A stretch of DNA of 64,000 nt from an uncultured Marinoscillum sp. (GTDB taxonomy: Bacteria > Bacteroidota > Bacteroidia > Cytophagales > MED-G16). Each line of letters starts with the position of its first letter. Within the stretch, counting starts at the first letter, position 1. Shown piece after piece: positions 30,137 through 56,504 of the stretch. Made by a program: the position numbers and the translations under genes. The notes under the pieces were generated by a model. The model made no database searches. It saw only the letters and a list, made by a program, of their open reading frames with translations, and was not told the origin of the DNA. The stretch spans positions 126,084 through 190,083 of the forward strand of contig CABZXU010000001.1 in the NCBI GenBank assembly GCA_902529805.1, given 5' to 3'.

Positions 30137-30700
30137 ATGAGTGAATCAAAAAATAACAATTTTTATTTAGTACTAGGGTTAATTTTAATTGTTGCTTTTT
30201 CGAGATTAATTCCACATTATCCTAATTTTACTCCTTTATGTTCTATTGCATTATTTGGTGCAAAATATTTTAATAATAGGTACTTAGCATATATTTTACC
30301 AATATTTTCTTTATGGTTAAGTGATATTATAATTAATAATTTTGTATTAGGACAATATTTTAATGAATTCACACTATTCTATTCTGGTTTTTACTGGCAG
30401 TATGGATCTTTCATATTAATTACTTTAATCGGAAGACTTACGTTAAAAAACATATCTTTTTCTAAGATATTAGGTGTTAGTATTTCCTCTTCTCTTATAT
30501 TTTTTGTTATTTCAAATTTTGGAGTTTGGATTTCTAGTTCATTCTATCCTAATACCTTATCAGGATTAATTTCATGTTATGTTGCTGCTATTCCTTTTTA
30601 TTATGGAACACTAGGTGGGGCAATTTTTTACTCATTTTTCTTATTTGGCTCTTATGAATTTATTTCAAGAAGAACTAATAAAGCATTTTCAATTAGATGA
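30137..30700 (+). CDS. DUF6580-family putative transport protein (integral membrane)
   Basis: About 187 aa and about 5 TM segments. The N-terminus RLIPHYPNFTPLCSIALFGAKYF is as I recall for DUF6580. The start is at either 30125 or 30137. The gene overlaps the next gene by 4 nt (ATGA). Confidence 0.6.
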   Translation: MSESKNNNFYLVLGLILIVAFSRLIPHYPNFTPLCSIALFGAKYFNNRYLAYILPIFSLWLSDIIINNFVLGQYFNEFTLFYSGFYWQYGSFILITLIGRLTLKNISFSKILGVSISSSLIFFVISNFGVWISSSFYPNTLSGLISCYVAAIPFYYGTLGGAIFYSFFLFGSYEFISRRTNKAFSIR

Positions 30701-31680
30701 ACTCTATCTTTTCAGAATTAAATTCTAGGATTTTGGTTTTAGACGGTGCTATGGGTACAATGATACAAACCTATAAGCTTGAAGAAGAAGATTTTAGAGG
30801 TGATAGGTTTAAAGATCATAAAATACTACTTAAAGGCAATAATGATCTTCTTTCCATAACTAGACCAGATATTATTAAGGAGATTCATAAGGGCTATTTG
30901 AATTCTGGAGCTGATATTGTACAAACAAATACTTTCTCTTCTACATCTATAGCAATGGAAGATTATGCATTACAAGATCTAGTATATGAACTTAATTTTG
31001 ACTCTGCAAAAATAGCAAGAGAGGTAACAGATAAGTTCCATAAAAAAAAATATGTTGCTGGATCTATCGGACCAACAAATAAGACTGCATCAATGTCTCC
31101 AGATGTAAATGATCCTGGTTTTAGAGCAATTACTTTTGATGAGTTAGTTGAATCATATAAAGAACAGATAAAAGGTTTAGTTGATGGAGGTTCAGATATT
31201 TTGTTAGTAGAGACCGTTTTTGATACTTTGAATGCAAAAGCTGCTCTTATGGCAATAAATGATTACTTTGAAGAAAATAATATAAGTTTACCTGTAATGT
31301 TAAGTGGAACTATTACTGATAATAGTGGAAGAACACTTTCTGGACAGACTGTAAATGCATTTCTTATTTCTCTATCTCATTTTCCACTACTAAGTATTGG
31401 TTTTAATTGTGCTCTGGGAGCTGACAAATTAAAACCCTATTTAAAGAGATTGAGTAACAGTACTAATTTTTTTACCTCAGTTTACCCTAATGCCGGTCTT
31501 CCTAATGCATTTGGTGAATATGATCAGACGCCGAATGGTATGTTGGCTCAGTTAAGAGAGTATCTTGATGAAAATTTAGTAAATATTATTGGTGGATGCT
31601 GTGGAACTACATACGACCATATTAAACTTATATCTGAAGAAGTAAAAAAGTATAAAACTAGGTCTATATCAAATGACTAA
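30697..31680 (+). CDS. Homocysteine S-methyltransferase domain protein (N-terminal module of split methionine synthase)
   Basis: 327 aa with Hcy-binding domain motifs LDGAMGT, GFNCA and GGCCGTT (zinc-ligand cysteines). Confidence 0.85.
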
Positions 31681-34348
31681 ATGTAAAAATCTGACACTTT
31701 CTGGATTGGAGCCATTTGAGTTAAAATCAAATATCAATTTTGTGAATGTGGGGGAGAGAACCAATGTCACTGGATCAAGGAAATTTCTTAGGTTAATTAA
31801 AGATGATAATTATTCAGATGCAATTGAAGTTGCTAGAAATCAGGTAGAGGGAGGAGCTCAGATTATTGATGTGAATATGGACGAGGGTATGCTTGATGGA
31901 AAAGAGGCTATGGTAAAATTTTTAAATCTTATTCAAGCAGAGCCTGATATAGCTAAACTTCCAATTATGATTGATAGCTCAAAATGGGAGATAATCCTTG
32001 CTGGTTTAAAGACAGTTCAAGGGAAGTGCATAGTAAATTCAATTAGTTTAAAGGAGGGTGAAGAAATATTTAAGGAGCAGGCAAATACAATTAAAAAGTT
32101 TGGTGCTGCAACAATAGTTATGGCTTTTGATGAGAAAGGACAAGCAGATACATACCAGAGAAGGGTAGATATATGCAAGAGATCATATGATATACTTGTT
32201 AATGAAATTAATTTTAATCCAGAAGATATAATATTTGATCCAAATATTTTTCCAGTAGCTACTGGAATTGAGGAACATAAGACATATGCTGTTGACTTTT
32301 TTAAAGCAACAAATTGGATAACTACTAACCTCCCATGTGCTAATGTGAGTGGAGGAGTAAGTAATGTATCATTCTCATTTAGAGGTAACAATACTGTAAG
32401 AGAGGCTATGCACTCTGTTTTTTTATATCATGCAATAAAAAATGGGATGAGGATGGGAATCGTAAATCCATCATTATTAGAAATTTATGATAACATCCCC
32501 AAAGAATTATTGGGGTTTGTGGAGGATGTTATCCTCAATAGAAGAGATGACGCGACTGAGAGATTACTAGATTATGCTGAAAATGTTTCTAATAAAACTG
32601 TTAAAGATAAGAAGAAAGAGAAGTGGAGAGATGATGATGTCCAATCTAGACTCACTCACTCTCTAGTTAAAGGAATAGATAAATTTATAATTGAAGATGT
32701 AGAAGAAGCTAGACAAAACTCTGATAAAGCTATTCATGTGATAGAAACGTATCTTATGAATGGTATGAATGTAGTTGGCGATTTATTTGGTGAAGGTAAG
32801 ATGTTTTTACCTCAGGTAGTGAAATCTGCTAGAGTCATGAAGAAGGCTGTTGCTCACTTGGTACCTTTTATAGAGGAAGAGAAAGTAGAGGGGAAAAAAT
32901 CGAACGGTAAAATATTAATGGCTACAGTAAAAGGTGATGTACATGATATAGGAAAAAATATTGTTGGGGTTGTTTTAGCATGTAATAATTTTGAGATAGT
33001 AGACCTTGGTGTTATGGTTCCTCCAGAAAAAATTATAGACACTGCAATAAAAGAAAATGTTGATATAATTGGTTTAAGCGGACTTATTACACCTTCATTG
33101 GATGAGATGGTATTTTTAGCTAAAGAACTAGAAAAATTAGACCTTAAGATTCCTGTTTTAATCGGAGGTGCTACAACCTCAAAGACACATACAGCGGTTA
33201 AGATATCCCCTGAATATTCAGGTCCTGTTGTTCATGTAAATGACGCTTCAAAAGCTGTGCCAGTATCAACAAGTTTATTATCGGAAGATAGTGATGATTT
33301 TGTGAAAGGTGTGAAAACCGATTATGAGGTTGTTAAAGAAAACTTTGAGAATAGAAAGGTGACAAAAAGTTTTATTACAATTGATGAGGCTAGAAAAAAT
33401 AAATTTATCATTGATTGGAATAAATCAAAGATTGTAAAACCTACTTTTCTTGGAGTAAAAGAGATAGTGATTGATGATTTATCTATTCTTCGTGAATATA
33501 TTGACTGGACCCAGTTCTTTAGATCTTGGAATTTACACGGAATCTATCCAGATATTTTTAGTTATGAAGCTAACGGTAAGGAAGCTAAAAAATTATTTGA
33601 TGATGCTAACGAATTATTAGATAAGATAATCAAAGAAAAACTATTAACTGCAAGGGGGATTTTTGGAATTTTCCCAGCTAATTCAATAGATGATGATATC
33701 TTAGTCTATGATAATAAATCATCAGATAAAGTTCTAGATAAATTTTTGACTTTGAGACAGCAAAGTAAAAAAGCAGAAGGAATACCAAACATTGCTCTAT
33801 CTGATTTTATAGCACCTCAGTCATCTAAAATAAAAGATTATATTGGTTCTTTTTGTGTTAGCACTGGTTTTGGCTCAGATGAATTATGTTCAAAATTTGA
33901 GAAAGAAAACGATGACTATTCAAGCATAATGGTTAAAGCATTAGCAGATAGGTTCGCTGAAGCATTTGCTGAATACCTCCATAAAGAAGTGAGAATTAAA
34001 TATTGGGGATATTCTTCAAATGAAAATTTTTCAAATGATGATCTAATCAAAGAAAAATATATTGGAATTAGACCTGCTCCAGGTTATCCAGCTTGCCCAG
34101 ATCATTTAGAAAAAAATACCATCTGGAAATTATTAAAAGTAGAAGAAAAAATAGGAGTAAAACTTACAGAAAGTTTAGCAATGTGGCCTGCTGCCTCAGT
34201 TAGTGGATATTATTTTGCAAATACTGAATCAAAATATTTTGGATTGGGTAAAATCGATAAAGACCAAGTTATTGATTATTCTAAAAGAAGAAAAATATCA
34301 TTTAAAGAAGCCTCTAAATGGTTAAATCCAAATATTAATGATATTTAA
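31673..34348 (+). CDS. metH: Cobalamin-dependent methionine synthase (pterin-binding, B12-binding and AdoMet-activation modules)
   Basis: 891 aa with B12-binding DxHxxG (GDVHDIGKN) and a C-terminal activation domain ([12 protein letters not shown]). It overlaps the upstream Hcy module gene by 8 nt. Confidence 0.9.
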
Positions 34349-39457: not shown

Positions 39458-42400
39458 TTGATGAGAAATTGGCTTATTATACTATTTCTATTTATAAACT
39501 ATATTTCTTTTTCTCAATCAAATATTTTAATTAAAAAACAGGATATTGATAATTTATCTTCAGAAAAAGTAAATTCTATATTTGTTGATAATAAAACATT
39601 TTCTTGGATAAGTACCCCTGAGGGATTAAATAGATTTGATGGAAAAAATAATACTGTTTTTAGATCCAATCCTTTTGATAGTACTACTATAATTGATAAT
39701 AATGTTTTTGGGGTTTTCCAAATAGATAATAATGGGGTCTTTGTTAAATCAAATGAAGGTCTAGATTATTTCAGTTATTCTGATTTTAATTTTAAGAGAA
39801 TTCAAGATAAGTCAAAACCAATTCATCATATTTTTAAAGAAAATAAATTATTTTTTTCAACAGAATCAGAGGGTTTATTTGTGTATGATTTAAGTAAAAA
39901 TCAAATTGATAATTTTAAGTTTGACCCGAGAAATCCACTTTCAATTTCTTCATCAAATTTTTCTGAAAACCAAAATCAGATTATAAAATTAATTAGAACA
40001 GATAATACATCTTCCGATTTGTGGTTAGGAACATTGTATGGACTTAATAAATTTAATCTGAATACAAAATCTTCTAAAAGATTTTATGAAAACTCTCAAG
40101 ATAATTCTCTTAATTCTAATATCATAAATGATATTTTTGATCTTGCAGATTCAACAATTTCATTAGATTCAGACCTATCAAGTAAACTTCTTATTTCGAC
40201 TGAAAATGGACTTTCAATGGTCGATAAATTAAGTAATAAAATAACTAATTATGAAAGTTTAAGAAATAATAAAATTTATAATATTTTTAAAATATCTACC
40301 ACTTTGCTTATTCATAAAAAAGATGGGGTTTTTAAAATTGAAAGTTTGAATGAAAATGAAATTAAGTTAAGTAAAATTTTTAACTCAAGAGATGAAATAA
40401 AAATAAAAATCATTAATGAAAACGAGTTTATTATTTTTAAAAAAAATACATCCAAATTTAATAGAATAGTATATTTCAATAATCAATTTATAGATATCCC
40501 TATTGAATTATCTAATAAAATTAATATTAATGACATAGGTAATTTTAATAGTTCATATTATGTTTCATCAAATTCTGGATTAATTAAAATTAACGAGAAA
40601 CTCGATAATATAAACAATGTTACATTAAATGAAATTGGACAAAATACTATTATTGCTTTTGCAGAAAATGATTATTATAAAGCGATATTATTATCAGATG
40701 GAAATTTATTATTGTACGAATATGAATCCTTAGTAAAAAAAATTAAAATAAAAGGATTTTCAAATGATTTGATTCTCAATACTGCTTTTCATCTTGAAGA
40801 AGATGAATTCATTGCTTTAGGAAATGAAAAATTACAAATAATTAATCTAAATGATTTTTCAATTGAGACATATGAAACTTCTAACGAAGGTTTTAATTCT
40901 ATTTTAGAAGGAAACATTGATAATTTAAAAACTATTAAAAGACAAAACTTAACAGGTAAAGAATTATGGATTTCCCTTAATAATGGGATTTCTATTTTAA
41001 ACTTAGATACGAAAGAGTTTAATAACTTTAAATTTAACCCAAGAAGTAAAAATAAATTTCCGCAAGGATTTTCATCTGTTATTATTTCAAACAAAAATGA
41101 AGTTTGGTTAACAAATAGCTCTACTGGATTATACAAATACGATGAAAATAATTTAGATGAAATCAATCATTATATTTTTGATATTAACGATAAAAAAAGT
41201 ATTACAAGTTCATCTTTGACTGATATTTATGAATATGATGATAAACTATACATCTCATCAAATGGTGACGGAATATTTATATATGAAAATGATTCAACCG
41301 GTTTTTTACATTTGACTATTGATAATGGATTATTATCTAATCAGGTTTTAAATTTTTTTGAAACCTATGAATATTTATTTGTTCTGACTGAACTTGGATT
41401 AAATTACTTTGACTATGAAGGAAATCTTAGAAATGTAAACGATGAAGATGGATTAATAGTTGGTAATTTTTTAAAAAATGGATTAAGTCTTTATAATGAT
41501 TTTCTATATGTTTATTCTAATAATCAAATTCAATCCATTGATATAAATAATATTTTTGTTGATAATGTAAAACCAATTATAAACATAACACAATCACTTA
41601 TGATTGATAATAATTTTGATAAGAGAAGTTATAAAATAAACAAAAATAAAATAAACCTAACTTATGATATTTCTAATATTGAACTTGTTTTATCATCTCC
41701 TTCTTATTATAAATCAAATAATACAACTATTCTTTATAAATTGTCTCCAATCAATGAAGATTGGCTAAGCTTAGGAAAAGAAAAAAACTTAATCATTCAA
41801 AGTTCGAGTTGGTCAAATAGTTTTGTAAATGGAAATAAAATACTTGTTCCATTTGGGAATTATAAATTAGAAATTAAGTCATCTAATAGTTCAGGAATAG
41901 AAAGTTCAAATCTTCTTTCATATGATTTAAGTGTAACACCTCCATGGTACCTAACTCAAATGGCATTCTTTTCCTATTTGATAATTTTAGGGTCATCAAT
42001 TTATTTTTATGTAAAATATAGTCAGGGAAAGACAAAAAGACTTATGGAAGAAAAAAGAAAAGAGGAAGAACTTCAAGAAGCGCATAACCTTCAAATGGGT
42101 TTACTTGCTAAAGAAAACCCAAATAGAGATGATTTAGATATAAGTACATATATAAGATGTGCAACTGAGGTTGGAGGAGATTATTATGATTTTATTGAAT
42201 TTGAAGACGGAAGTTTATTGGCCATATGTGGAGATGCTACTGGACATGGAACTGCATCTGGAATGATGGTTTCAATAACAAAAGCAGGACTTCTTGGAAT
42301 TGATTCAAACGATCCGGAATTTATGCTAAAAACATTAAATAGAATAATAAAAAAAGTAGATATAGGTAGATTAAGAATGAGCTTAAATCTTGTTCATTTT

Positions 42401-42775
42401 CAAAATGGAAGTATTAAACTTAGTTCTGCTGCAATGCCACCAATATATCATTTTGAAAAGAAGAATAAAAAAGTAGATGAAATTCAATTATCAAATCTTC
42501 CTTTAGGAGGATTAATGAATGAAAGTTTTTCAGTAATTGATAAAAAGTTTGGGAAAGATGATGTGTTGGTAATGATTTCTGATGGGTTACCTGAAGCTCC
42601 AAATAAAAAAGGAGAGCTGCTGGATTATGAAGCTGTAAAAAAATGCATTGAAGAGAATGGTTATAAATCAGCAAATGAAATTAAAAATGAACTAGTTAAA
42701 TTATCAGAAACTTGGTTAGATGGGATTCATAACCCTGATGATATAACAATTGTTGTCTGCAAGAAAAAGGTTTAA
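39458..42775 (+). CDS. Membrane sensor: periplasmic two-component-regulator-propeller/Y_Y_Y-like region + TM + PP2C (SpoIIE/RsbU-type) phosphatase
   Basis: 1105 aa. Propeller-type repeats recur (WISTPEGLNRFD, WLGTLYGLNKFN, WISLNNGISILN, WLTNSSTGLYKYD). A single TM segment MAFFSYLIILGSSIYFYV is encoded at about 41960-42015. PP2C motifs GGDYYDF, GDATGHG and ISDGL are present. Confidence 0.8.
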   Translation: MMRNWLIILFLFINYISFSQSNILIKKQDIDNLSSEKVNSIFVDNKTFSWISTPEGLNRFDGKNNTVFRSNPFDSTTIIDNNVFGVFQIDNNGVFVKSNEGLDYFSYSDFNFKRIQDKSKPIHHIFKENKLFFSTESEGLFVYDLSKNQIDNFKFDPRNPLSISSSNFSENQNQIIKLIRTDNTSSDLWLGTLYGLNKFNLNTKSSKRFYENSQDNSLNSNIINDIFDLADSTISLDSDLSSKLLISTENGLSMVDKLSNKITNYESLRNNKIYNIFKISTTLLIHKKDGVFKIESLNENEIKLSKIFNSRDEIKIKIINENEFIIFKKNTSKFNRIVYFNNQFIDIPIELSNKININDIGNFNSSYYVSSNSGLIKINEKLDNINNVTLNEIGQNTIIAFAENDYYKAILLSDGNLLLYEYESLVKKIKIKGFSNDLILNTAFHLEEDEFIALGNEKLQIINLNDFSIETYETSNEGFNSILEGNIDNLKTIKRQNLTGKELWISLNNGISILNLDTKEFNNFKFNPRSKNKFPQGFSSVIISNKNEVWLTNSSTGLYKYDENNLDEINHYIFDINDKKSITSSSLTDIYEYDDKLYISSNGDGIFIYENDSTGFLHLTIDNGLLSNQVLNFFETYEYLFVLTELGLNYFDYEGNLRNVNDEDGLIVGNFLKNGLSLYNDFLYVYSNNQIQSIDINNIFVDNVKPIINITQSLMIDNNFDKRSYKINKNKINLTYDISNIELVLSSPSYYKSNNTTILYKLSPINEDWLSLGKEKNLIIQSSSWSNSFVNGNKILVPFGNYKLEIKSSNSSGIESSNLLSYDLSVTPPWYLTQMAFFSYLIILGSSIYFYVKYSQGKTKRLMEEKRKEEELQEAHNLQMGLLAKENPNRDDLDISTYIRCATEVGGDYYDFIEFEDGSLLAICGDATGHGTASGMMVSITKAGLLGIDSNDPEFMLKTLNRIIKKVDIGRLRMSLNLVHFQNGSIKLSSAAMPPIYHFEKKNKKVDEIQLSNLPLGGLMNESFSVIDKKFGKDDVLVMISDGLPEAPNKKGELLDYEAVKKCIEENGYKSANEIKNELVKLSETWLDGIHNPDDITIVVCKKKV

Positions 42776-42777
42776 AA

Positions 42778-44346
42778 TTATTTATGTTTATAAACCCAAA
42801 CATCAATAGGTTTTGATTTACCTTTAACTTGTATTGGGGAAATTTCTTTAAATTTATAATCATCAGTAAGTGATTTTTTTACATATTTAGAAATCAATAT
42901 TTCACCAGACTTAGCATGTGAACAAAGCCTAGCCCCAAGATTTATAGTATCGCCAATAACTGTATAATTCATTTGTTGTTCTGAACCTATATTACCCGAT
43001 ACCGCTTTTCCTTTATTGATTCCAATGCCTATTTTAAAAGGTTCAAAACCATCCTTTACTATTTTAGAGTTAAATTTATCAAGAGACTTAAACATTTCAA
43101 TAGCAGTTTTAATAGCATTTTCTGTGTCATTTTCATTTTTTAATGGCACTCCATATAATACCATTAATTCATCCCCAACAATTTTATCTAATGTACCATT
43201 AAATTTAAACACAACATCAATCATTGATTGAAAATACTTATTTAATAGTTTAACAATCTGCTTGGGACTTAACTTTTCTGACATACTAGTAAATCCTCTT
43301 ATATCAGAAAAAAGAATAGTAATTTCACTTTCTTCACCACCGAGATTTAGAGAATTTTCATTTTCTAAAAGTTTATCTACAATATTTTTTGATACATATT
43401 TTTTAAACGTAGATTTTACTTTATTAATCTTCGAAAGATCATCCATTGCTATAACAATTCCCGAAAAAGACTTCCCTTCATCAAATACAGGAGAACAAGA
43501 TAAATTTATACTAATGTTTTTAGATTTAGATTTTAAATTAAATTCGGATTCAAATATTCTTTTTTGCTCTGATTCTACTTTTTGAATTAAATCAATTAAT
43601 AAATTGTTTTTTTCGAAAATTATAAAAAAATGATTTCCAATCACTTCATTTTCATCTTTTTTAAGTAATCTAAGGGCTTCCTTATTAGTGAACTCAATTT
43701 CACCAAATAAATTAATTTCTACAATTCCAGTAGTAATAGAAGACATTATGTTTTCATTAAGCTTGTTGGATTTTTTTAATGACTCAAGTAGTTTAACATT
43801 TTGAAATGCAATACTTGTTTGAATTGAGATTGCTTCCAAAAGCTTTAGATCATTTTTCTCAAAATTTATAATACCATCACGAGATTCTTTATCAAATAAA
43901 ATGATTGCTCCAACTAATTTATTATTATATAAAATTGGGCTAGTTAATGCTTTTTTAGAATCAAATAATTCATGATTAAAATCATCTTTACTAGTAACTA
44001 TAAATGATTTTTTTTCTTTATTTAATTTTTTTAAAAAACCAGATCTAGTATTGAAAATTTGCTTTTTAATATTTTCTTCTTCTATATTAAAAGATGATAC
44101 GGTATCAAAAATATTTGAAACATCATTTTTGATTAAAACAATTCCCTTAGAAGAATTTATAATTGAAGAAGATAAAGTTAAAACATTAAAAAAAAGTTCA
44201 TTAAGATCATCAAGAGAATTTATTGTATTAGTTAGATCTAAAAGGGTTTCTAACTCTAAATATTTTTCATTTAAGGATTTATTTTTTTTTAATAGTTGAT
44301 TTTCTAAATCTTCTATAGATTTTTTTGAAGAAATGGGTGAAACCAT
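42778..44346 (-). CDS. Coiled-coil/GAF/PAS sensor class III adenylate cyclase
   Basis: 522 aa. The C-terminal cyclase domain has metal-binding Asp in FSDIRGFT and GDELMV. The purine-specifying Lys in LDKIVGDE and Thr in NYTVIGD fit an ATP-specific class IIIb enzyme. GDTINLGARL is also present. Confidence 0.8.
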   Translation of the reverse strand: MVSPISSKKSIEDLENQLLKKNKSLNEKYLELETLLDLTNTINSLDDLNELFFNVLTLSSSIINSSKGIVLIKNDVSNIFDTVSSFNIEEENIKKQIFNTRSGFLKKLNKEKKSFIVTSKDDFNHELFDSKKALTSPILYNNKLVGAIILFDKESRDGIINFEKNDLKLLEAISIQTSIAFQNVKLLESLKKSNKLNENIMSSITTGIVEINLFGEIEFTNKEALRLLKKDENEVIGNHFFIIFEKNNLLIDLIQKVESEQKRIFESEFNLKSKSKNISINLSCSPVFDEGKSFSGIVIAMDDLSKINKVKSTFKKYVSKNIVDKLLENENSLNLGGEESEITILFSDIRGFTSMSEKLSPKQIVKLLNKYFQSMIDVVFKFNGTLDKIVGDELMVLYGVPLKNENDTENAIKTAIEMFKSLDKFNSKIVKDGFEPFKIGIGINKGKAVSGNIGSEQQMNYTVIGDTINLGARLCSHAKSGEILISKYVKKSLTDDYKFKEISPIQVKGKSKPIDVWVYKHK

Positions 44347-44355
44347 TTAATAAAT

Positions 44356-44700
44356 TTAAGAAAGTTTTTCTAAAGCCGAATCAACTGAATCGTAGACCTC
44401 ACAATACTTAGTTATACCCATAATGTTAAAGGTTTTTTCAACAATACCAGCAAGATTAGTAAATGCCATAACTCCATTTACAACCTGTAATTTTTCAATA
44501 ATTTCAATAAGAATGGATACACCAATACTGTTTACAACCTTTGAATCATTCATGTCCACTAAAAATTTAGTGCTTCCAGATTCCATTTTTTCAGTAAATA
44601 CTTCTAAAACAGCTTCTCCAGCAAGATTATTAAAATAACCAGCGGTACTAATTATTATTACACCATCTTTTTCTTCAACATTTTTTATAGAATCACTCAT
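44356..44700 (-). CDS. STAS-domain anti-sigma-factor antagonist (RsbV/SpoIIAA-like)
   Basis: 114 aa with a STAS fold pattern. The candidate phosphorylatable Ser lies in VVNSIGVSIL. Confidence 0.8.
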   Translation of the reverse strand: MSDSIKNVEEKDGVIIISTAGYFNNLAGEAVLEVFTEKMESGSTKFLVDMNDSKVVNSIGVSILIEIIEKLQVVNGVMAFTNLAGIVEKTFNIMGITKYCEVYDSVDSALEKLS

Positions 44701-45127
44701 TATCTCTTTTTTTAGTCATTGTTACAGTTGTACCTGATTCATCACTATTATATTCAACCGAGTCCATTAATTCAGAAACAAGTTGAAGACCCCACCCCCT
44801 TTTTCTTTCATCAGAATTTAATTTATTTTCAATATTAGGTATTTCCACTTTAGATTTATCAAAACCAACTCCTTTGTCAATAACTTTTACAGTTAATTTA
44901 TCTGGTTCAACAATAAAGTGAATAAAAATTTCCTTAGTCTTTGAATGTTCAAATGCATTAATACATGATTCAATTAGGGCCATACTAATCTCAGCAGATT
45001 TTTCTTCAGAAAGATTCATATGCTTAGATATAACCTCAGCAGTCTTAGTTGCTGATAGTTCTATATCTGGAATTACTGGTAATTTTAATTCAACTACTGG
45101 CTCTTTTCCCATAAAATTTTTACTCAT
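44693..45127 (-). CDS. RsbW/SpoIIAB-like serine kinase (HATPase_c_2)
   Basis: 144 aa with N-box ESCINAFEH, G1 box DKGVGF and G2 box RGWGLQLV. It overlaps the STAS gene by 8 nt. Confidence 0.8.
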   Translation of the reverse strand: MSKNFMGKEPVVELKLPVIPDIELSATKTAEVISKHMNLSEEKSAEISMALIESCINAFEHSKTKEIFIHFIVEPDKLTVKVIDKGVGFDKSKVEIPNIENKLNSDERKRGWGLQLVSELMDSVEYNSDESGTTVTMTKKRDNE

Positions 45128-45241
45128 TTAAAAAGGTGTAATTTAATCCTTATCAAATTAATTATAAAGAAAATTTTACAAAAAATAATTATGTTTCTTT
45201 TTTTCATGAATTATCTACTATTTTAACAAAAAATAATAAAA

Positions 45242-45763
45242 ATGAAAAAAGGTAAAGTAAATCATGATGAAGTAGAAAACTATTGGGAGCTAATAAATTA
45301 TAATATACATCATATTAGTCATTCTGAATTGAAAGCATCGCTTATTCTAACTGCTTATGGAATAATTTTTGGCTTAGCTTACGATGTAAGCACTGAGTTT
45401 CCTATTAAAAACAATTTATTATATATATTTTATTTTTTAATTATATCGTTTATTTCCCTTACAATTATATCAATTGGATATTGTTTTAAAACATATATCC
45501 CAAGATTGAATAATAAACTTAAAAAATCAGTATTTTTTTTTCATGATATAAATTTCCATTATAAAACAGCAGAAAAATATTCAAAAAAACTTATAAAAGT
45601 TATGGAAGATGAAAGGGAGTTGAAACTATTACTTGCAGAACAGTCTTATATAAATGGTGTGATTGCTTCAAAAAAATATACAAATGTCACAAAAGCAATA
45701 AAATTTATGATTTACTCTCTTTCTGCTCTTTTTTCCCTTCTTATTTTTGAACTATTTGCTTAA
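45242..45763 (+). CDS. DUF5706 / Pycsar-effector-family membrane protein
   Basis: 173 aa with 3-4 TM segments. Motifs recalled for DUF5706 are present: HISHSELKASLIL (compare LSxxADxKAxIml), VFFFHDINF (compare NLLFFGNF) and a C-terminal KKYTNVTKAIKFMIYSL (compare KYryLritY). Confidence 0.6.
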   Translation: MKKGKVNHDEVENYWELINYNIHHISHSELKASLILTAYGIIFGLAYDVSTEFPIKNNLLYIFYFLIISFISLTIISIGYCFKTYIPRLNNKLKKSVFFFHDINFHYKTAEKYSKKLIKVMEDERELKLLLAEQSYINGVIASKKYTNVTKAIKFMIYSLSALFSLLIFELFA

Positions 45764-46360
45764 TTCTTCCAATTTTTTTTTTGCATATAATATATTTTTT
45801 TCTTTTTGTATATCTCCATTTTCTTTCATAAAATCAGTATAAAACTGATGAATACTTAGAAATTCTAATTGTTTATTGTAAAATTCTTCATCATTCTTAA
45901 CCACATTAAATTTAACCCATTCTTGTTTTAATTTTTCAGAAATATTTTCAAAATCTTTTGAGCCAAGATACTCTAAGTCTGAATCTCTTATAATTGATTC
46001 TAAATTATCTTTTGGAACAGCCAATGGCTTTGTTACTAATATTAACTTTTTTATTGATTCAATTGTTTTTTCATTATAATCATATTCTAATAATATTTTA
46101 CTTGAAAATTTAACCCCTATTTCTTCATGATTAATGTGAGATTCAATGAAACCATAATCATGTAATAAAGATGCCGTTAAAAGTGCTCTCCAATTTTCAT
46201 TATTAAGATCATAATTACTTCCTATTTTTAATGCTGATTTTATTACTCTTTTTGTATGAAATAAATTATGATAAAAATAATTTGGATTTAATTTTTCAGA
46301 CAAATCTCTAAATATCCTTTCAGACAATTTCTTAGGCACATAGTTTTTAAAAAAAAACAT
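45752..46360 (-). CDS. HD-domain metal-dependent phosphohydrolase
   Basis: 202 aa with the HD signature YHNLFHTKRV...LLHDYGF...RDSDL. Its 3' end overlaps the DUF5706 gene by 12 nt, convergently. Confidence 0.75.
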   Translation of the reverse strand: MFFFKNYVPKKLSERIFRDLSEKLNPNYFYHNLFHTKRVIKSALKIGSNYDLNNENWRALLTASLLHDYGFIESHINHEEIGVKFSSKILLEYDYNEKTIESIKKLILVTKPLAVPKDNLESIIRDSDLEYLGSKDFENISEKLKQEWVKFNVVKNDEEFYNKQLEFLSIHQFYTDFMKENGDIQKEKNILYAKKKLEELSK

Positions 46361-47964: not shown

Positions 47965-48039
47965 TGGGCCCTGCTGGATTCGAACCAGCGACCCCCTGCT
48001 TGTAAGGCAGGTGCTCTGAACCAGCTGAGCTAAGAGCCC
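47965..48039 (-). tRNA. tRNA-Val (anticodon UAC)
   Basis: My manual cloverleaf from the reverse complement GGGCTCTTAGCTCAGCTGGTTCAGAGCACCTGCCTTACAAGCAGGGGGTCGCTGGTTCGAATCCAGCAGGGCCCA. It has a 7-bp acceptor stem, D stem GCTC/GAGC, anticodon stem CCTGC/GCAGG with loop CUUACAA, and a T arm GCTGG-TTCGAAT-CCAGC. CCA is not encoded. Confidence 0.9.
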
Positions 48040-51059: not shown

Positions 51060-51755
51060 ATGAAAAATTTATTTATTGGATTCTTTACCATTATTATGGT
51101 ATTTGAATCTAAAGCACAGCAGGTATATTGGAATTGTTTTAATATAATTGTTGATAATCCAACTGAATTAGTAACTGCGCTAGACGCTTTTATGGAAACT
51201 ACCGATGCAGGAAAAAGTTTTACTCCAGCTTCTCTTACAGAAATGAGAAATTATGGAACAAACTATTCAGCTACTCATCAATTATGTTTCTTTTCACCAG
51301 ATCCAGCCTCATTAGAAGCTAACAGAAGTAAATTAAATAATTTACAAGCAGGTGTACTTATGGGGGTTTGGGATAAAACCGTAACAGTTGAATCATCTAT
51401 TCTAGGTCAATCTCTAATAGCTGATCCTTCAAAATTCAATTTGCCATATGGTGTGATTTACTCCATTCAAGTATCAGACCCCGTAGCTTATGGTGCTGCA
51501 TTTTCAAAAATGATATCGTCTATAGACTATGATGGAGCTATAGAATTACATGAAGCATTGATTGGCGGTGAAACAGGAGTAACTCATTATATTGTTGTTA
51601 GAACTAAAGATATGGCTACATGGGTAAGAGAAAGAAATAAGGTAAATGCATCTAAAGCATTTCAAGATTTTATAGTTGCTACAAGTGCTATTTCTAATAG
51701 ATCTGCAGTAGATATTTTCTCAGGTATGTTGATTAAACAATATAACGTACAATAA
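51060..51755 (+). CDS. Secreted protein of unknown function, array member A (two ferredoxin-like halves)
   Basis: 231 aa with signal peptide ..VFESKAQ/Q. It is a paralog of 52643..53329 (shared ATH, P..Y..AF.KM and GV(T/S)HYI motifs). Confidence 0.8.
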   Translation: MKNLFIGFFTIIMVFESKAQQVYWNCFNIIVDNPTELVTALDAFMETTDAGKSFTPASLTEMRNYGTNYSATHQLCFFSPDPASLEANRSKLNNLQAGVLMGVWDKTVTVESSILGQSLIADPSKFNLPYGVIYSIQVSDPVAYGAAFSKMISSIDYDGAIELHEALIGGETGVTHYIVVRTKDMATWVRERNKVNASKAFQDFIVATSAISNRSAVDIFSGMLIKQYNVQ

Positions 51756-51762
51756 ATATGTC

Positions 51763-51832
51763 TTATTTGGATTTATTCCAAATAATATATAATTTGCTCT
51801 CCCTTTCAACTTGAAAGAAGGGAGAGCAAATT
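51763..51832 (+). terminator. Two consecutive hairpins after array gene A (attenuator/processing site candidate)
   Basis: Hairpin 1 is TTATTTGGA/TCCAAATAA (51763-51785, 9 bp, loop TTTAT). Hairpin 2 is AATTTGCTCTCCCTT/AAGGGAGAGCAAATT (51791-51832, 15 bp, 12-nt loop). No U-tract follows either. Confidence 0.5.
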
Positions 51833-51860
51833 ATATTAAAAACTAAACTTAAAGGGTATC

Positions 51861-52622
51861 ATGAAAAATTTTATATTAATTTTCGCATTAATTATTAATG
51901 CTAATTTCGTTTTTGGCCAAGCTATTTCGTATAGATATATTAAACCTATAAAAGGTCATGGTCAAGACCTTAGAAAAGGATTAGAAGACAAAACAAAAAA
52001 ATATAATTCCAAAGAAAGCGATCCAAGGATTTATACTTTTGCAGTTAGGGCAAGTCAAAGAGGGTCAATGTCGGGAGTTCTTAGGATGTCTTATGGTGAA
52101 ACACTAGGTGAACTGTCAGTTGGCGGATCTGGTCAACCTGGAATGATGGAATACTGGATGGAAAATGTTGATAAATATATTGAATCAAATTCTCCAAGTG
52201 AAATTTTTACTCTAAGAAAAAGCGCTACTCATAATGATGCGTTAGGTACTGAAAAACCTTTTAGAAGAGTTTTTCATTACATTATTAAACCAGGACAATG
52301 GGACAAATTTTGGAAAGTCAGAGATAATTTACCCAAAGCAATTGAAGAATCAGGTGTTGACTTTGACGTTAATGCTTTTCAATCTTTTGCTGGTGGACCA
52401 AGAGGACATGTAAGAATTGTTGTTTTTGGAAAAGACATGAAAAGTTTTGAACCAGGATCTGGGGATTGGCAAAAAATAAGATCTGCTTATGAAAAGATTT
52501 ATGGGGAGGATTCATGGGATATAGACTGGGAATTAAGTAGAAATAGTCAACGAGAATGGGGAAATTCAGTTGAATTACTTGAATTTATGCCTGAATTAAG
52601 TTCCCCATTATTAGATAAATAA
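51861..52622 (+). CDS. Secreted protein of unknown function, array member B
   Basis: 253 aa with signal peptide ..NFVFGQ/A. It is a paralog of 53362..54120 (shared KYN, YTF, FWKVR, Y..IYG..SW..DW and PELSSP motifs). Confidence 0.8.
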   Translation: MKNFILIFALIINANFVFGQAISYRYIKPIKGHGQDLRKGLEDKTKKYNSKESDPRIYTFAVRASQRGSMSGVLRMSYGETLGELSVGGSGQPGMMEYWMENVDKYIESNSPSEIFTLRKSATHNDALGTEKPFRRVFHYIIKPGQWDKFWKVRDNLPKAIEESGVDFDVNAFQSFAGGPRGHVRIVVFGKDMKSFEPGSGDWQKIRSAYEKIYGEDSWDIDWELSRNSQREWGNSVELLEFMPELSSPLLDK

Positions 52623-52642
52623 ACTTAAAACTTAAAATAACT

Positions 52643-53329
52643 ATGAAAAAATCAATTATAATTTTACTTATAATATTTACACATCTAAACGTTTTTTCAC
52701 AAGAATATGTGTGGACTGTATATAATATTAAAGTAGACAGAGTTAATGCAGGGCAAGTTGTTACTGCAATGGATAAATACCTTTCAAAACCTGGTAATTT
52801 AGTAGATGGTGTCACTGTATCTTTATTTGAAATAATGTTTGCTAGTAATGACATGGATGCAACACATGTAATTGCTTTTACAGGTAGTGCAGATGCTATG
52901 AATGCTCAATATTCTAGAGAGACTGGTGATGACTGGAAAGTAATGATGAGTACGTTTGATCAAGTAACTAAAAGTGATGGGTCAGCTGCAGGTAGATCTA
53001 TTCATACAATAAATACTGATGCAGAAGGTCCAATGCAACATATCATACAAATGAAAGTTGATGAACCACAAAAATATGCTCCTGCATTTAAAAAAATGTG
53101 GTCTACAGTAAAGCCTAGTGGTAGGTTAACTTTAGGTCAATTTATTAGTGGTAGAAAAGATGGGGTTTCTCATTATATTTTAATATCAAGAAATAATTTA
53201 AAGGATCTTCTTTCTCCAAGAGAGTGGAATACCAAGGAACAAGATGCATGGGAAAAGTATAGAAAAGAAAGAGGTGATTCGGAAATTATCACAACAATGA
53301 CAAGAGCGTTGGTAAAACAATGGAAATAA
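52643..53329 (+). CDS. Secreted protein of unknown function, array member A'
   Basis: 228 aa with signal peptide ..LNVFSQ/E. It is a paralog of member A. Confidence 0.8.
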   Translation: MKKSIIILLIIFTHLNVFSQEYVWTVYNIKVDRVNAGQVVTAMDKYLSKPGNLVDGVTVSLFEIMFASNDMDATHVIAFTGSADAMNAQYSRETGDDWKVMMSTFDQVTKSDGSAAGRSIHTINTDAEGPMQHIIQMKVDEPQKYAPAFKKMWSTVKPSGRLTLGQFISGRKDGVSHYILISRNNLKDLLSPREWNTKEQDAWEKYRKERGDSEIITTMTRALVKQWK

Positions 53330-53361
53330 TTTTTTAAACTAAAAACTAAATTTATAATACA

Positions 53362-54120
53362 ATGAAATACATATATTTTATACTAATTACTTTATTTATA
53401 TCCTTTCAAGGATTATCACAGTCATCAGTTGTCTGGTTGTCTTACCATAAACCTATGAAAGGAAAAGGATCAGAGTTGTTTGATGCTATTAAGGATAAAA
53501 CACAAAAATATAATCAAGGACAAAATGATTCAAAGCTATATACATTTAGTATTATGGCCGGACCAAGACAAGGAGAATTTTTAAGAGTAGGTATGGGACC
53601 AACATGGAAAGACTTTGATAACTGGAGTCCAGATTCAAAGGAGATGGATTATTGGAGAGATAATGTTGCTCCTCTAATTGAATCATCTTCTGGAAGAGAA
53701 TACTTTGAAAGAGTTGATGATGCAAGTTATGATGCAAGTACCCCAGGTGAAAATAGTGTAGGATTAATGATTCACTATAACATAGGAGGTAATCCAAATC
53801 ATTTTTGGAAGGTAAGAAGAAATGCTGTTAAAGCAATTAAAAAATCAGGTGAAAGTGTTACATTAAATGTTTGGAGGTCAGCAGGTGGAGGTCCACAAAA
53901 TCACATAATAGTTGCATTTTCATATAAAAATATGGAGGAATATGGTAATGCTCAAAAAGTTTGGGATAAAGTAGGTGCAAAGTATGATGAAATTTATGGG
54001 GCTGGATCATGGAATACTGATTGGGGACTTTTGAGAGGTAGTCTTGAAATGTGGGGTGCTCAAACTGAGATAACTAGATTTCTACCAGAACTAAGCTCTC
54101 CTCCAATAGCTTTACAATAA
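53362..54120 (+). CDS. Secreted protein of unknown function, array member B'
   Basis: 252 aa with signal peptide ..FQGLSQ/S. It is a paralog of member B. Confidence 0.8.
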   Translation: MKYIYFILITLFISFQGLSQSSVVWLSYHKPMKGKGSELFDAIKDKTQKYNQGQNDSKLYTFSIMAGPRQGEFLRVGMGPTWKDFDNWSPDSKEMDYWRDNVAPLIESSSGREYFERVDDASYDASTPGENSVGLMIHYNIGGNPNHFWKVRRNAVKAIKKSGESVTLNVWRSAGGGPQNHIIVAFSYKNMEEYGNAQKVWDKVGAKYDEIYGAGSWNTDWGLLRGSLEMWGAQTEITRFLPELSSPPIALQ

Positions 54121-54151
54121 AATAATTGTATAATGTAAATTAAAAATAAAA

Positions 54152-54919
54152 ATGAGAATTTTATATAGTATTATTTTAATAGGTTTATTATCAGGAGTTG
54201 CTTATGCTCAAGATAATAATATGGATCCAACGGATCATGAGATTGCTACTTGGCAATTTAGAAGTATTAGTCCTAGTGATGTGGCTAATTTTTTATCAAA
54301 TGAAGATAATGTTTTTAGAAAAGCTGTTAAATCAGCTATTGCTGATGGAAGAATGAGACATTGGGGCTTATTAAGAAAAGTTAATGGCAATACATCTTCA
54401 GGTCATAACTATTTTTTTTATAATGGTTTTAATAAAATAACTGATTTAGATAACTCCCCGTGGGGTGCTGGCTCTAGTTTTGGATTAAAACCAGTAAAGT
54501 CAGCTGGTGTTTTAGGAACTGTTCATACATCTCCTGCTATTCAAGTATTTGCTGATAACCCAAAGCCTGGAAGCTATCTAGTTATAAATTATGCTAATCC
54601 CAATGATTTAGATAAATTTATTCAACTACAAAATGATGTTTGGAAACCATTCATTAAAACCTTTATAAATGATACACAGTCATCATTGGCCGGTTGGGAA
54701 GTACATAGAGTTGTTTCTCCTACAGGAAATGCGTATAACTGGAATGTTGCTACAATTGATCATTACACAAGTTTAAGTGGTGCAATGAACCCTTTTCCTA
54801 ATGGTTTTGATTGGCCTGAAGGCTTAGAAGAAATTAATAATCTTCTTCCAAATGGAAAATTTACTAGATCAGTTATTTATGAAGTTGTCTTCTATGAAGG
54901 ACTTGATGCAAGTAAATAA
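54152..54919 (+). CDS. Secreted protein of unknown function, array member C
   Basis: 255 aa with signal peptide ..GVAYAQ/D. It has two halves with a beta-alpha-beta pattern (EIATWQFRSISPSDVANF... and GSYLVINYANPNDLDKFIQ...). Confidence 0.8.
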   Translation: MRILYSIILIGLLSGVAYAQDNNMDPTDHEIATWQFRSISPSDVANFLSNEDNVFRKAVKSAIADGRMRHWGLLRKVNGNTSSGHNYFFYNGFNKITDLDNSPWGAGSSFGLKPVKSAGVLGTVHTSPAIQVFADNPKPGSYLVINYANPNDLDKFIQLQNDVWKPFIKTFINDTQSSLAGWEVHRVVSPTGNAYNWNVATIDHYTSLSGAMNPFPNGFDWPEGLEEINNLLPNGKFTRSVIYEVVFYEGLDASK

Positions 54920-54952
54920 ATATTAATTTTTAGATTAAAATAAATTTTTAAA

Positions 54953-55729
54953 ATGAAAAATACATTTATAACATTATTAATGTTTGTGTTAATCTCTTAT
55001 GATGGGATTAGCCAAAAAGTTGAAGGTATCAGTATTATGGATGCAGTTGTTCTTAAAGAAGGGATGGAAGAAAAATATATTGAAGTTGAGGAATTCTGGT
55101 CTAAAATTCATGAAGAGTTAATTAAAGAAGGTAAAAAAGTAGACTGGTCAATTTGGAAAAGATTACCTGGTGAACCTGTCTCCATCGATAGCAAACCAGC
55201 AGATTTTTTTATTTTTAATAATTTTGAATCGATTGAACAAATGCAAGCTAATAATGATATAGACTATGTTGCAATTGCTCAAAAAGTTCATGGAATTTCA
55301 AAGAAGAAAGCAACAAAAATGATTGATTCATCATCTGATCCTAGAGAAGCAACAAGGTCATATACCTTATCTATTCTATCAAGAGCAATGGCTCAAGATT
55401 TAAAAATAGAAAAAGGAACCATTGCTTCAATTTCTTTAATGCAAGAAAAAAATGATGATTATGAATCATTTGAAATGGAGGTTTTTAAAAATCAATTTCA
55501 AAAAAGAATTGATGCAGGAGCACAAAATTTTTGGGGTTTTACAAGAGTAGAAAATAGATCAGAAAATGCCTACAATCAATTTTCCCATATTTGTTTTAAT
55601 ATTAATGGGGAAAAAGAATACAATGGTAAAGATGATTTTAAAACTCAAAAGCTTGTAGAATTAGGTATGAAATCAAGAGATATGATTCCTAATCCAGGTT
55701 CCATGGAATGTGTATTTATTAAACAATAA
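54953..55729 (+). CDS. Secreted protein of unknown function, array member D
   Basis: 258 aa with signal peptide ..YDGISQ/K and the same two-half architecture as members C and E. Confidence 0.8.
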   Translation: MKNTFITLLMFVLISYDGISQKVEGISIMDAVVLKEGMEEKYIEVEEFWSKIHEELIKEGKKVDWSIWKRLPGEPVSIDSKPADFFIFNNFESIEQMQANNDIDYVAIAQKVHGISKKKATKMIDSSSDPREATRSYTLSILSRAMAQDLKIEKGTIASISLMQEKNDDYESFEMEVFKNQFQKRIDAGAQNFWGFTRVENRSENAYNQFSHICFNINGEKEYNGKDDFKTQKLVELGMKSRDMIPNPGSMECVFIKQ

Positions 55730-55757
55730 TTTTTTATTATAATAAATTTAAAATCAA

Positions 55758-56504
55758 ATGAAACATATATGTATAACACTAATAATAATATTTAGTTCTT
55801 TCGTATTAAAAGCTCAAGAAGTATTTTTCCTTCATGCAGTTAAAATTCATGAAGATAGAGTTGAAAGTTTTGAGGAAATACAAAAGAATTATGCTAGAGA
55901 ACTTGCCCAAGATGCAAAAAAAGAAGGTATCTTAAAAGATTGGGTTTTATTGAAGCCAGTAGAATTTATGGGTGAATCTACCGAACAAGAATACAACTAC
56001 GTATGGGTTCACATATTTAAAGATGTTAAACAAATGGTTAATAGAACAACATGGTGGGATAAGTCAAAAGAAAAGTTCGGCATTGAACCATCTGTTTTAT
56101 TTAGAGAAGATCTTGAAAAAAGTGGATATTGGTATTGGAAAACTGAAAAGCAAATTGAAACAGGGAGTATGGGAAAATATATCATATTTAACTGGGCTAC
56201 TCCATCTGATCTAAATCAAGCAATTTCACTTGCTGATGATATTTCTGAGACATTTAAAGCCAGAATGAAAAATGTTGGTATGACAGAATGGGGTGTTGCA
56301 ACTAAAATTATGCCACAAGGATTAGATAATTCTACAATATTCTTTTGGGATGCTTATGAAACATTTGAGGGGGCGGTTAAACATCTAATGAATGATGCGA
56401 TTCTTAAAGATATTGATGGTGAAATGTTTCAAGATTTTTTCAAACTTATGCCAAATGGTTGGGATAATAGAATGATTTTTGAACCCGTCACATCTACTAA
56501 CTAG
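55758..56504 (+). CDS. Secreted protein of unknown function, array member E
   Basis: 248 aa with signal peptide ..FVLKAQ/E. An internal repeat is visible: VFFLHAVKIHEDRVESFEEIQ...DWVLLKP versus YIIFNWATPSDLNQAISLADD...EWGVATKIMP. Confidence 0.8.
   Translation: MKHICITLIIIFSSFVLKAQEVFFLHAVKIHEDRVESFEEIQKNYARELAQDAKKEGILKDWVLLKPVEFMGESTEQEYNYVWVHIFKDVKQMVNRTTWWDKSKEKFGIEPSVLFREDLEKSGYWYWKTEKQIETGSMGKYIIFNWATPSDLNQAISLADDISETFKARMKNVGMTEWGVATKIMPQGLDNSTIFFWDAYETFEGAVKHLMNDAILKDIDGEMFQDFFKLMPNGWDNRMIFEPVTSTN

Follow-up and report, generated by a model that had tools for sequence, protein, structure and literature searches.

Organization of the locus

The stretch of DNA analysed here (the window) is 64,000 nucleotides long and comes from an uncultured Marinoscillum sp. 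It carries two small genes that meet tail to tail, one encoding a membrane protein of the PycTM (DUF5706) family and the other an HD-superfamily phosphohydrolase. Divergent from the PycTM gene is an operon for an RsbW-like kinase, a STAS-domain protein and a class III nucleotide cyclase, beyond which lies a gene for a SpoIIE-type PP2C phosphatase (Table 1). A first-pass annotation of the sequence had proposed that the pair and the cyclase form a circuit based on a cyclic nucleoside monophosphate (cNMP). The coordinates and motifs that it gave for the 173-aa and HD open reading frames (ORFs) were reproduced by an ORF check, and both the 12-nt overlap of their 3' ends and the 114-nt divergent gap to the rsbW-rsbV-cyclase operon proved exact.

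The overlap is framed by the two stop codons, TAA at 45761-45763 on the + strand and CTA, which reads TAG on the - strand, at 45752-45754. In the operon, the STAS gene overlaps its upstream kinase gene by 8 nt. A terminator scan showed no terminator-like site in the PycTM/HD 3' junction, and a sigma-70 promoter scan of the locus, which used a consensus not valid for Bacteroidota, gave only background. An Rfam search found no element in the 114-nt intergenic region; the sole match nearby was a tRNA gene at 47965-48039 (-) (RF00005, 72 bits), directly downstream of a TPR gene and about 1.6 kb from the HD gene. No NCBIfam model matches the PycTM or the HD protein.

Table 1. Genes and features of the PycTM/HD locus, in positions of the window.
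Feature	Position	Strand	Basis
SpoIIE-type PP2C phosphatase, 1105 aa; predicted partner-switch input phosphatase	39458..42775	+	PF07228 SpoIIE, 82 bits, residues 917-1102
GAF-PAS-class III nucleotide cyclase, 522 aa; predicted adenylate cyclase (writer)	42778..44346	-	PF00211, 116 bits, and PAS and GAF matches
STAS-domain protein (RsbV-like, anti-anti-sigma type), 114 aa	44356..44700	-	PF01740, 44 bits
RsbW-like serine kinase (HATPase_c_2), 144 aa; at the head of the kinase-STAS-cyclase operon	44693..45127	-	PF13581, 80 bits
Divergent intergenic region between cyclase operon and PycTM gene, 114 nt; presumed site of both promoters	45128..45241	.	
PycTM/DUF5706-family three-TM membrane protein, 173 aa; predicted cNMP-responsive membrane output	45242..45763	+	PF18967
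Tail-to-tail coding overlap of PycTM and HD genes, 12 nt	45752..45763	.	ORF coordinates
HD-superfamily phosphohydrolase, 202 aa; predicted eraser (cNMP phosphodiesterase, from context)	45752..46360	-	PF01966

The PycTM and HD proteins

The first-pass annotation had matched the membrane protein to DUF5706, and the profile check confirmed this with 41.4 bits against Pfam PF18967 (cutoff 27.2). Furthermore, the PADLOC PycTM model PDLC02364 matched over model positions 4-153 of 160 with 85.6 bits (E=1.1e-24), and the CBASS '2TM' effector models of PADLOC matched more weakly. By its score and its architecture of a small helical transmembrane (TM) protein, the window's PycTM is classed as a member of PF18967. 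The ORF contains the motifs HISHSELKASLIL, VFFFHDINF and KKYTNVTKAIKFMIYSL. Hydrophobic segments at residues 31-51, 59-82 and 151-173, two of them strong and one moderate, and a K/R-rich loop at residues 83-150 imply three TM helices with the N-terminus inside. The AlphaFold model is helical throughout (pLDDT 87.9).

Relatives of the locus taken from database, reference-genome and metagenome scans are labelled L followed by a number. Distant standalone PycTM genes occur in L010:6001-11175, L011:6001-7515 and L012:1951-3445, loci that have neither an HD nor a cyclase gene. One of the three precedes two HSP90-like HATPase_c_3 proteins, and two precede proteins of 269-292 aa without a Pfam match, near class I ribonucleotide reductase genes. 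The PycTM frame is in two pieces in L013:10604-11096, L017:10586-11087 and L115:6711-7204, all contigs of metagenome-assembled genomes (MAGs) or single-amplified genomes; these may be pseudogenes or assembly errors.

The identification of the second protein as an HD protein also held, with 24.1 bits against PF01966 (cutoff 22). The motifs YHNLFHTKRV and LLHDYGF are present in its 202-aa ORF. A comparison of 37 diverse relatives, fusions included, shows no variation at residues Y30, H31, H35, H67, D68, H78, E79, D126 and D128. Its AlphaFold model has a pLDDT of 95.5.

Conservation among close relatives

Close relatives of the two proteins are standalone and marine, with 160-215 aa for PycTM and about 200 aa for HD. 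The convergent pair was present in 22 related loci, 18 with the 12-nt overlap seen here and three with one of 6 nt. Given this conserved 3' overlap, the PycTM and HD transcripts must overlap as well, and it may be speculated that this adds antisense cross-regulation. On long contigs of clade relatives the pair always stands beside the kinase-STAS-cyclase-SpoIIE cluster; in some genomes one or two extra SpoIIE genes lie in between and the linkage is kept. The opposite flank of the pair varies among clade loci, with CMD/TPR genes in some and DUF481 and others elsewhere. The locus is syntenic across the clade at 52-100% identity.

A reference-genome scan, with one genome per species and the HD alignment as query, returned 80 loci. 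The clade relatives among them belong to Marinoscillum, Flammeovirgaceae and Cytophagales MAGs, that is, to Cytophagia. The Flavobacteriia, which had been named as the lineage to search, are thus not that of the window's clade, whose relatives are Marinoscillum-like MAGs of the Cytophagales.

The possibility was considered that the cyclase, PycTM and HD genes are functionally unrelated neighbours, brought together by chance or phylogenetic inertia. Conservation within the Marinoscillum clade alone could be inherited synteny, and in a compact AT-rich genome short gene overlaps may be incidental. The arrangements found in more distant loci bear on this explanation.

Association of the HD family with cyclases, cNMP-binding proteins and PycTM

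In L009 (34-38% identity) a convergent PycTM/HD pair occurs again, with a TPR-cyclase gene directly upstream of the HD gene, and L132 likewise has a convergent pair and a TPR-cyclase. The HD gene of L070 is convergent with a REC-cyclase gene, itself downstream of a hybrid histidine kinase, and that of L069 is followed by a TM/HEAT protein and then by a cNMP-binding protein (PF00027, 79 bits). A metagenome scan seeded with the HDs of L009, L070 and L069 yielded 80 more loci. The scanning HMMs for cyclase, cNMP-binding domain (CNBD) and other partners were derived from the loci themselves, and many of the loci scored as having none are short contigs.

Single ORFs in which a cyclase is fused to HD were found in seven loci (L144, L145, L148, L160-L162 and L170); these are candidate bifunctional cNMP synthase/hydrolase proteins. 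About a dozen loci of the metagenome scan have cyclase-then-HD operons, two (L105 and L106) have cyclase-PycTM-HD operons, nine (L096, L097, L101, L103, L109, L113-L115 and L118) have PycTM-then-HD operons, and about ten have HD/CNBD pairs. In L106, genes for a 667-aa TPR-cyclase, a 168-aa PycTM and a 205-aa HD protein are co-directional, and the last two overlap by 8 nt. The co-occurrence of unfused versions with cyclases that the first-pass annotation had proposed to look for was therefore found throughout the Marinoscillum clade, in L009, L105, L106, L132 and L070, and, with HD joined to the cyclase itself, in the seven fusions. In one of these, L144, the cyclase hexad is degenerate (T-K-H-E-S-R), so that this domain may be a regulatory pseudo-cyclase.

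Cyclase domains are concentrated next to HD, with 1.91 per 10 kb within 1 kb and, in the same loci, 0.18 at 1-3 kb, 0.15 at 3-6 kb and 0 at 6-10 kb. A cyclase, CNBD or PycTM lies within 3 kb of HD in 17 of the 24 loci that have at least 3 kb on both flanks. Because the partners occur in various parts of the HD tree, in differing orders and orientations, the associations do not represent one inherited arrangement.

The cluster in L170 is orthologous to that of the window. Its order is SpoIIE (with Reg_prop/Y_Y_Y), RsbW, STAS, a 705-aa GAF-PAS-cyclase-HD protein (4568-6685) and a TMEM175 gene. Identity to the window is 47% for the cyclase over its full length, 67% for RsbW, 50% for STAS, 49% for the SpoIIE C-terminus and 31% for the HD part, so that the window's own cyclase type occurs fused to this HD family. 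The product of the last gene (6682-7347) is a homolog of TMEM175-family K+ channels (PF06736, 87.8 bits), and its frame overlaps that of the cyclase-HD fusion by 4 nt. TMEM175-like genes also stand directly after HD or cyclase-HD in L162:2095-2787, L143:813-1487 and L163:7717-7974. In these four loci, therefore, an ion channel family holds the slot of PycTM.

Taken together, a cyclase density more than tenfold higher beside HD than farther out, independent fusions, several gene orders, distant lineages and the fusion of HD to the cyclase in the orthologous L170 cluster leave a chance neighbourhood, already disfavoured, extremely improbable.

HD-PycTM fusions

The first-pass annotation had pointed to polypeptides of about 400 aa in which an HD domain precedes DUF5706. 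Such proteins exist: of the 80 reference-genome loci, 61 encode HD and PycTM in one ORF of 392-442 aa, HD forming the N-terminal part. Most are from Flavobacteriaceae, the genera including Polaribacter, Maribacter, Arenibacter, Zobellia, Winogradskyella and Aquimarina. In the fusion of a complete Polaribacter chromosome (L054), Pfam places HD at residues 30-124 and PycTM at 271-381, the latter with 129.5 bits. None was found among the close or distant relatives in protein databases; the fusions were seen only in the reference-genome scan.

The two genes of the window had been described as a split version of such a fusion. In the HD-domain tree, HD-PycTM fusions and the GAF...HD/PycTM forms described below make up one clade, and the HD of the window belongs to another clade, in which no fusion to PycTM occurs. 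Furthermore, the co-directional operons of the window's HD clade have the order PycTM then HD, the reverse of that in the fusion. For these reasons a split was rejected.

The fused gene is flanked in 57 of the 61 loci by a divergent gene for a Metallophos protein of about 1300 aa and a convergent gene for a protein of about 825 aa without a Pfam match; L033:1441-5397 and L086:11212-13686 are examples from loci L026-L092. Such constancy of the two neighbours is what would be expected of a core gene passed on vertically. Often there is a second Metallophos gene in the vicinity.

In Chryseobacterium (L072:7646-11180) and a Flavobacterium MAG (L080), the gene for a 967-aa GAF...C-terminal HD protein is separated by 4 nt from that for a 208-aa PycTM protein downstream. 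This is a third architecture of the HD-PycTM pair. A protein of about 1221 aa encoded directly downstream in L072 may be related to one of the proteins that flank the fusions. Over all the loci, the coupling of HD and PycTM arose in at least three forms, namely single polypeptide, co-directional operon and convergent pair.

The cyclase and the partner switch

The window cyclase has a complete catalytic hexad, D-K-D-T-N-R. Either this or D-K-D-D-N-R, the form in most, is present in 44 of the 48 linked cyclases. Among class III cyclases, specificity for ATP is set by a Lys-Asp pair in class IIIa and by a Lys-Thr pair in class IIIb. With its metal Asp pair, substrate Lys plus Asp/Thr position and transition-state Asn and Arg, the window enzyme is, as judged by residues, a class III adenylate cyclase. 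The Pycsar systems consist of pyrimidine cyclases located in defence islands and of effectors that cause abortive infection (PMC10118264; PMC11224242). The determinants of their cyclases are Y50/D94/R97 for UTP and F100/R142/Q144 for CTP (PMC11224242). Since the window's hexad is of the ATP type and these determinants differ, cyclic AMP (cAMP) is the predicted product and messenger; by the same residues, the enzyme does not classify as a PycC that makes cCMP or cUMP.

The PP2C phosphatase (PF07228), the STAS protein (PF01740) and the HATPase_c_2 kinase (PF13581) are encoded together as a partner-switch set, and the SpoIIE orthologs in L001-L008 and L170 also bear Reg_prop/Y_Y_Y sensor repeats. 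No sigma factor gene was seen among the annotated genes of this RsbU/V/W-like cluster. The cyclase is the third gene of the operon, and the arrangement recurs in L170, which suggests that the cyclase is the target of the switch.

Defence or physiology

The PycC models of PADLOC match the GAF-PAS cyclase of the window (42778-44346) at 6.5e-23. Because PycC and PycTM models both match the locus, automated defence finders could mis-call Pycsar here. The possibility was therefore considered that the locus is a genuine abortive-infection variant similar to Pycsar or Pucsar. Phage would trigger the cyclase through the switch, PycTM would kill the cell by membrane disruption, and HD would serve as a self-immunity brake on basal nucleotide. 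The matches of PycTM to Pycsar and CBASS-2TM effector models and that of the cyclase to PycC agree with such a system, and Pycsar effectors do work through membrane impairment (PMC10118264). Moreover, purine relatives exist. Pucsar is a cGMP-based offshoot of Pycsar whose TM effectors belong to the 'pJV1-spdB3 3TM family', and EcPucTM, which is related to PycTM, forms a hexameric channel-like assembly (preprint 10.64898/2026.08.12.744502).

However, the GAF-PAS sensors and adenylate-type residues of the cyclase speak against this, as does its partner-switch operon, which is of a kind typical of physiological signalling, and in the Pucsar preprint the physiological cyclases are outgroups to the immune clades (10.64898/2026.08.12.744502). 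The synteny of the locus over its whole clade, the positional conservation of the fused homolog as a core gene in Flavobacteriaceae and the presence of TMEM175 K+ channel genes in the equivalent slot elsewhere also argue against abortive infection. Furthermore, Pfam identified the flanks of the window locus as housekeeping genes (split metH, glmS, OMP, deacetylase, esterase and Mur ligase), PADLOC gave no match for ten flanking proteins, and no defence or mobile-element genes were present in the flanks. The hypothesis of a defence island was rejected on the Pfam and PADLOC results for 15 flanking proteins in all. The GC content is uniform, at 22-33%, without anomaly.

Among 2.9 million viral contigs (IMG/VR) there was no relative of the window's PycTM subfamily. 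The sole HD relative was at L173:142-2929, where an ORF of 712 aa that ends in an HD domain overlaps a following one of 222 aa. Since this resembles the cyclase-HD and channel arrangement of L170, L173 may be misclassified cellular DNA. With next to nothing of either family in viral contigs, a viral origin was rejected. The adenylate-type cyclase with its sensor domains, the partner-switch operon, the housekeeping flanks, the uniform GC content and the near-absence from viruses favour a physiological module, and an abortive-infection role appears quite improbable.

Elsewhere in the window, methionine synthase is encoded by two ORFs that overlap by 8 nt (30697-34348), the first for a Homocysteine S-methyltransferase domain protein (30697-31680) and the second for a protein with pterin-binding, B12-binding and activation domains (31673-34348). 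At 51060-56504 there are seven consecutive + strand ORFs of 228-258 aa with signal-peptide-like N-termini. Those checked had no Pfam match, and some pairs are paralogous, with 23-36% identity. This array is also present in the orthologous region of L007.

A proposed cAMP signalling module

With modest confidence, the PycTM/HD pair is regarded as probably the half that provides output and reset in a cAMP signalling module of Marinoscillum-like marine Cytophagales. This module would be chromosomal, inherited vertically, and related to Pycsar without being a member of it. The first-pass annotation had likewise proposed a circuit related to, yet distinct from, canonical Pycsar, and on this point the adenylate-type residues, the GAF-PAS domains, the partner-switch operon and the housekeeping flanks free of defence genes bear it out. 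The proposal builds on features that are directly observed: the domains assigned, the arrangement of the genes and its conservation, the repeated links of HD to PycTM, cyclases and CNBD proteins, the adenylate-type residues and the housekeeping context.

As input, SpoIIE-type PP2C phosphatases with propeller sensor domains would act on the switch formed by the STAS protein and the RsbW-like kinase. The switch is co-transcribed with, and presumably controls, the GAF-PAS class III adenylate cyclase, which would be the writer. The cAMP produced would act on the three-TM PycTM protein, whose oligomerisation or opening may alter membrane permeability or ion flux. Finally, the HD hydrolase would degrade the nucleotide, setting the threshold and resetting the system. 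HD is tethered to the PycTM N-terminus in the fusions and probably associates with PycTM in a complex in the window as well. We infer, then, that the switch regulates the cyclase, that HD hydrolyses its product and that PycTM binds this product despite lacking a CNBD. The output would be a graded, physiological change of membrane conductance rather than suicide.

Several points weigh against this module. All of the functional claims come from comparative genomics. The pair and the cyclase are not co-transcribed in the window. No cNMP-binding domain is recognisable in PycTM by Pfam or in the AlphaFold model, and a fold search of that model against the PDB gave nothing meaningful (best E~1), leaving it without a solved structural relative. 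A benign output of PycTM is an assumption, since Pycsar effectors of this family kill cells. The metagenome loci are phylogenetically non-independent samples, and seven of the 24 well-flanked HD loci have no cyclase, CNBD or PycTM within 3 kb. The first-pass annotation had directed attention to the neighbourhoods of fusions; the fusions were found, but a search reaching 10 kb from the 61 fused genes gave no cyclase, even at E<=10, so that a cNMP link is conjectural for the fused Flavobacteriaceae genes. The similarities of HD count on the same side. By profile, its closest solved relatives are the uncharacterised small HD hydrolases 2pq7 (E=1.9e-10), YedJ (1e-5) and BH2835 (9e-5), whereas class I phosphodiesterases (PDEs) appeared in the search of the HD profile against the PDB only at E~2e-3, over about 45 residues that include the YHNxxH...HD motif. 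Similarity of the HD model to PDE5/4/2 in Foldseek reached a TMq of 0.55-0.68.

In that Foldseek search, 2pq7, 2pjq and YpgQ stood among many PDE5/4/2 entries with similarly weak scores. The window HD has no Pfam match to PF00233, the class I cNMP phosphodiesterase family, and the HD relative in L070 scored 19.6 bits, below the cutoff of 24.8, over model positions 1-45 only. Because the PF00233, PDB-profile and Foldseek matches are weak, sub-threshold or ambiguous, HD was not filed as a class I PDE and that assignment was dropped. The putative phosphodiesterase role of HD therefore draws on its genomic context, by analogy with GGDEF-EAL/HD-GYP and RelA/SpoT.

An alternative is that HD and PycTM form a membrane-anchored complex that acts on a substrate other than the cyclase product, for example another nucleotide, a 2',3'-cNMP or an alarmone. 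The three-TM part would then be an anchor, an oligomerisation scaffold or a sensor of membrane state, and the adjacency of the cyclase would reflect co-regulation or cross-talk. The nearest solved relatives (2pq7, YedJ and YpgQ) are indeed generic HD hydrolases whose activity is unknown or directed at nucleoside triphosphates, PycTM has no CNBD, and the fused genes lie beside conserved Metallophos phosphoesterases with no cyclase nearby. However, the cyclase-HD fusions in several HD sub-lineages and the HD/CNBD pairs are most simply explained by product turnover, a logic that mirrors GGDEF-EAL/HD-GYP and RelA/SpoT, and elsewhere the only known role of the PycTM family is that of a cNMP-responsive effector. 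A different substrate is thus considered unlikely, and cAMP turnover remains the preferred role of HD.

A broader and more tentative proposal, held with less confidence than the module itself, is that PycTM-family three-TM proteins may be widespread physiological conductance proteins of Bacteroidota. They would be controlled by cAMP, interchangeable with TMEM175-type K+ channels, and paired with an unrecognised family of small HD-type cAMP phosphodiesterases that is also fused to class III cyclases as bifunctional writer-erasers. The Pycsar, Pucsar and CBASS-2TM effectors would be relatives or exaptations. If this is true, a new family joins the short list of bacterial cAMP phosphodiesterases, and the cyclase-HD fusions are the cAMP counterpart of GGDEF-EAL or RelA/SpoT enzymes. 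An effector family labelled 'Pycsar effector' in many Bacteroidota genomes would then serve ordinary signal transduction, which bears on defence annotation. Moreover, the three-gene system of L106 and the natural fusion of L170 would be tractable for the study of ligand sensing by a CNBD-less PycTM, a matter left unsettled by the published work on Pycsar and Pucsar TM effectors. A limited literature search returned no paper that mentions DUF5706, and it brought up neither HD-PycTM nor HD-type cAMP PDEs with a link to class III cyclases.

Comparison with known systems

The window locus resembles Pycsar in having a membrane protein of the same family (PF18967) near a cyclase of class III fold. 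However, this cyclase has GAF-PAS sensors and the Lys/Thr residues of the adenylate type in place of pyrimidine determinants. There is no compact operon of cyclase and effector, the cyclase being part of the kinase-STAS-cyclase operon, which runs divergently from PycTM; the locus includes an HD hydrolase as a partner; and it is syntenic with housekeeping flanks instead of lying in a defence island. With Pucsar it shares a purine cNMP, cAMP being predicted for the window, and a three-TM membrane effector. In contrast, the cyclases of Pucsar are standalone and belong to an immune clade, EcPucTM has an extra CNBD whereas the window protein is all-helical with 173 aa, and no HD partner has been described for Pucsar.

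The HD-PycTM fusions of Flavobacteriaceae contain the same two domains as the window pair, with the HD metal residues intact. They differ in being single polypeptides with HD N-terminal, in their separate HD clade and in their conserved Metallophos neighbourhood, where no cyclase lies within 10 kb. Like the class I 3',5'-cyclic nucleotide phosphodiesterases (PF00233), the window HD has a metal site with the motif Y-H-N-x-x-H ... H-D and an HD fold built wholly of helices. However, the class I catalytic domain alone has about 330 aa, compared with about 200 aa for the whole HD protein, which is nearer to small HD proteins of the 2pq7/YedJ type.

The RsbU/RsbV/RsbW partner switch is matched by the SpoIIE/PP2C phosphatase, STAS protein and HATPase_c_2 kinase of the window, including the kinase-STAS order in the operon; the difference is that the third gene of the operon encodes a cyclase and that no gene for a sigma factor was seen alongside. 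In the GGDEF-EAL and RelA/SpoT systems the synthetase and the hydrolase are fused in one protein. Cyclase and HD are joined in the same manner in L170, L145, L162 and other relatives of the window locus, which thereby resemble GGDEF-EAL/HD-GYP (c-di-GMP) and RelA/SpoT ((p)ppGpp). The nucleotide and the enzyme families are different, and in the window the two predicted activities are encoded by separate genes.

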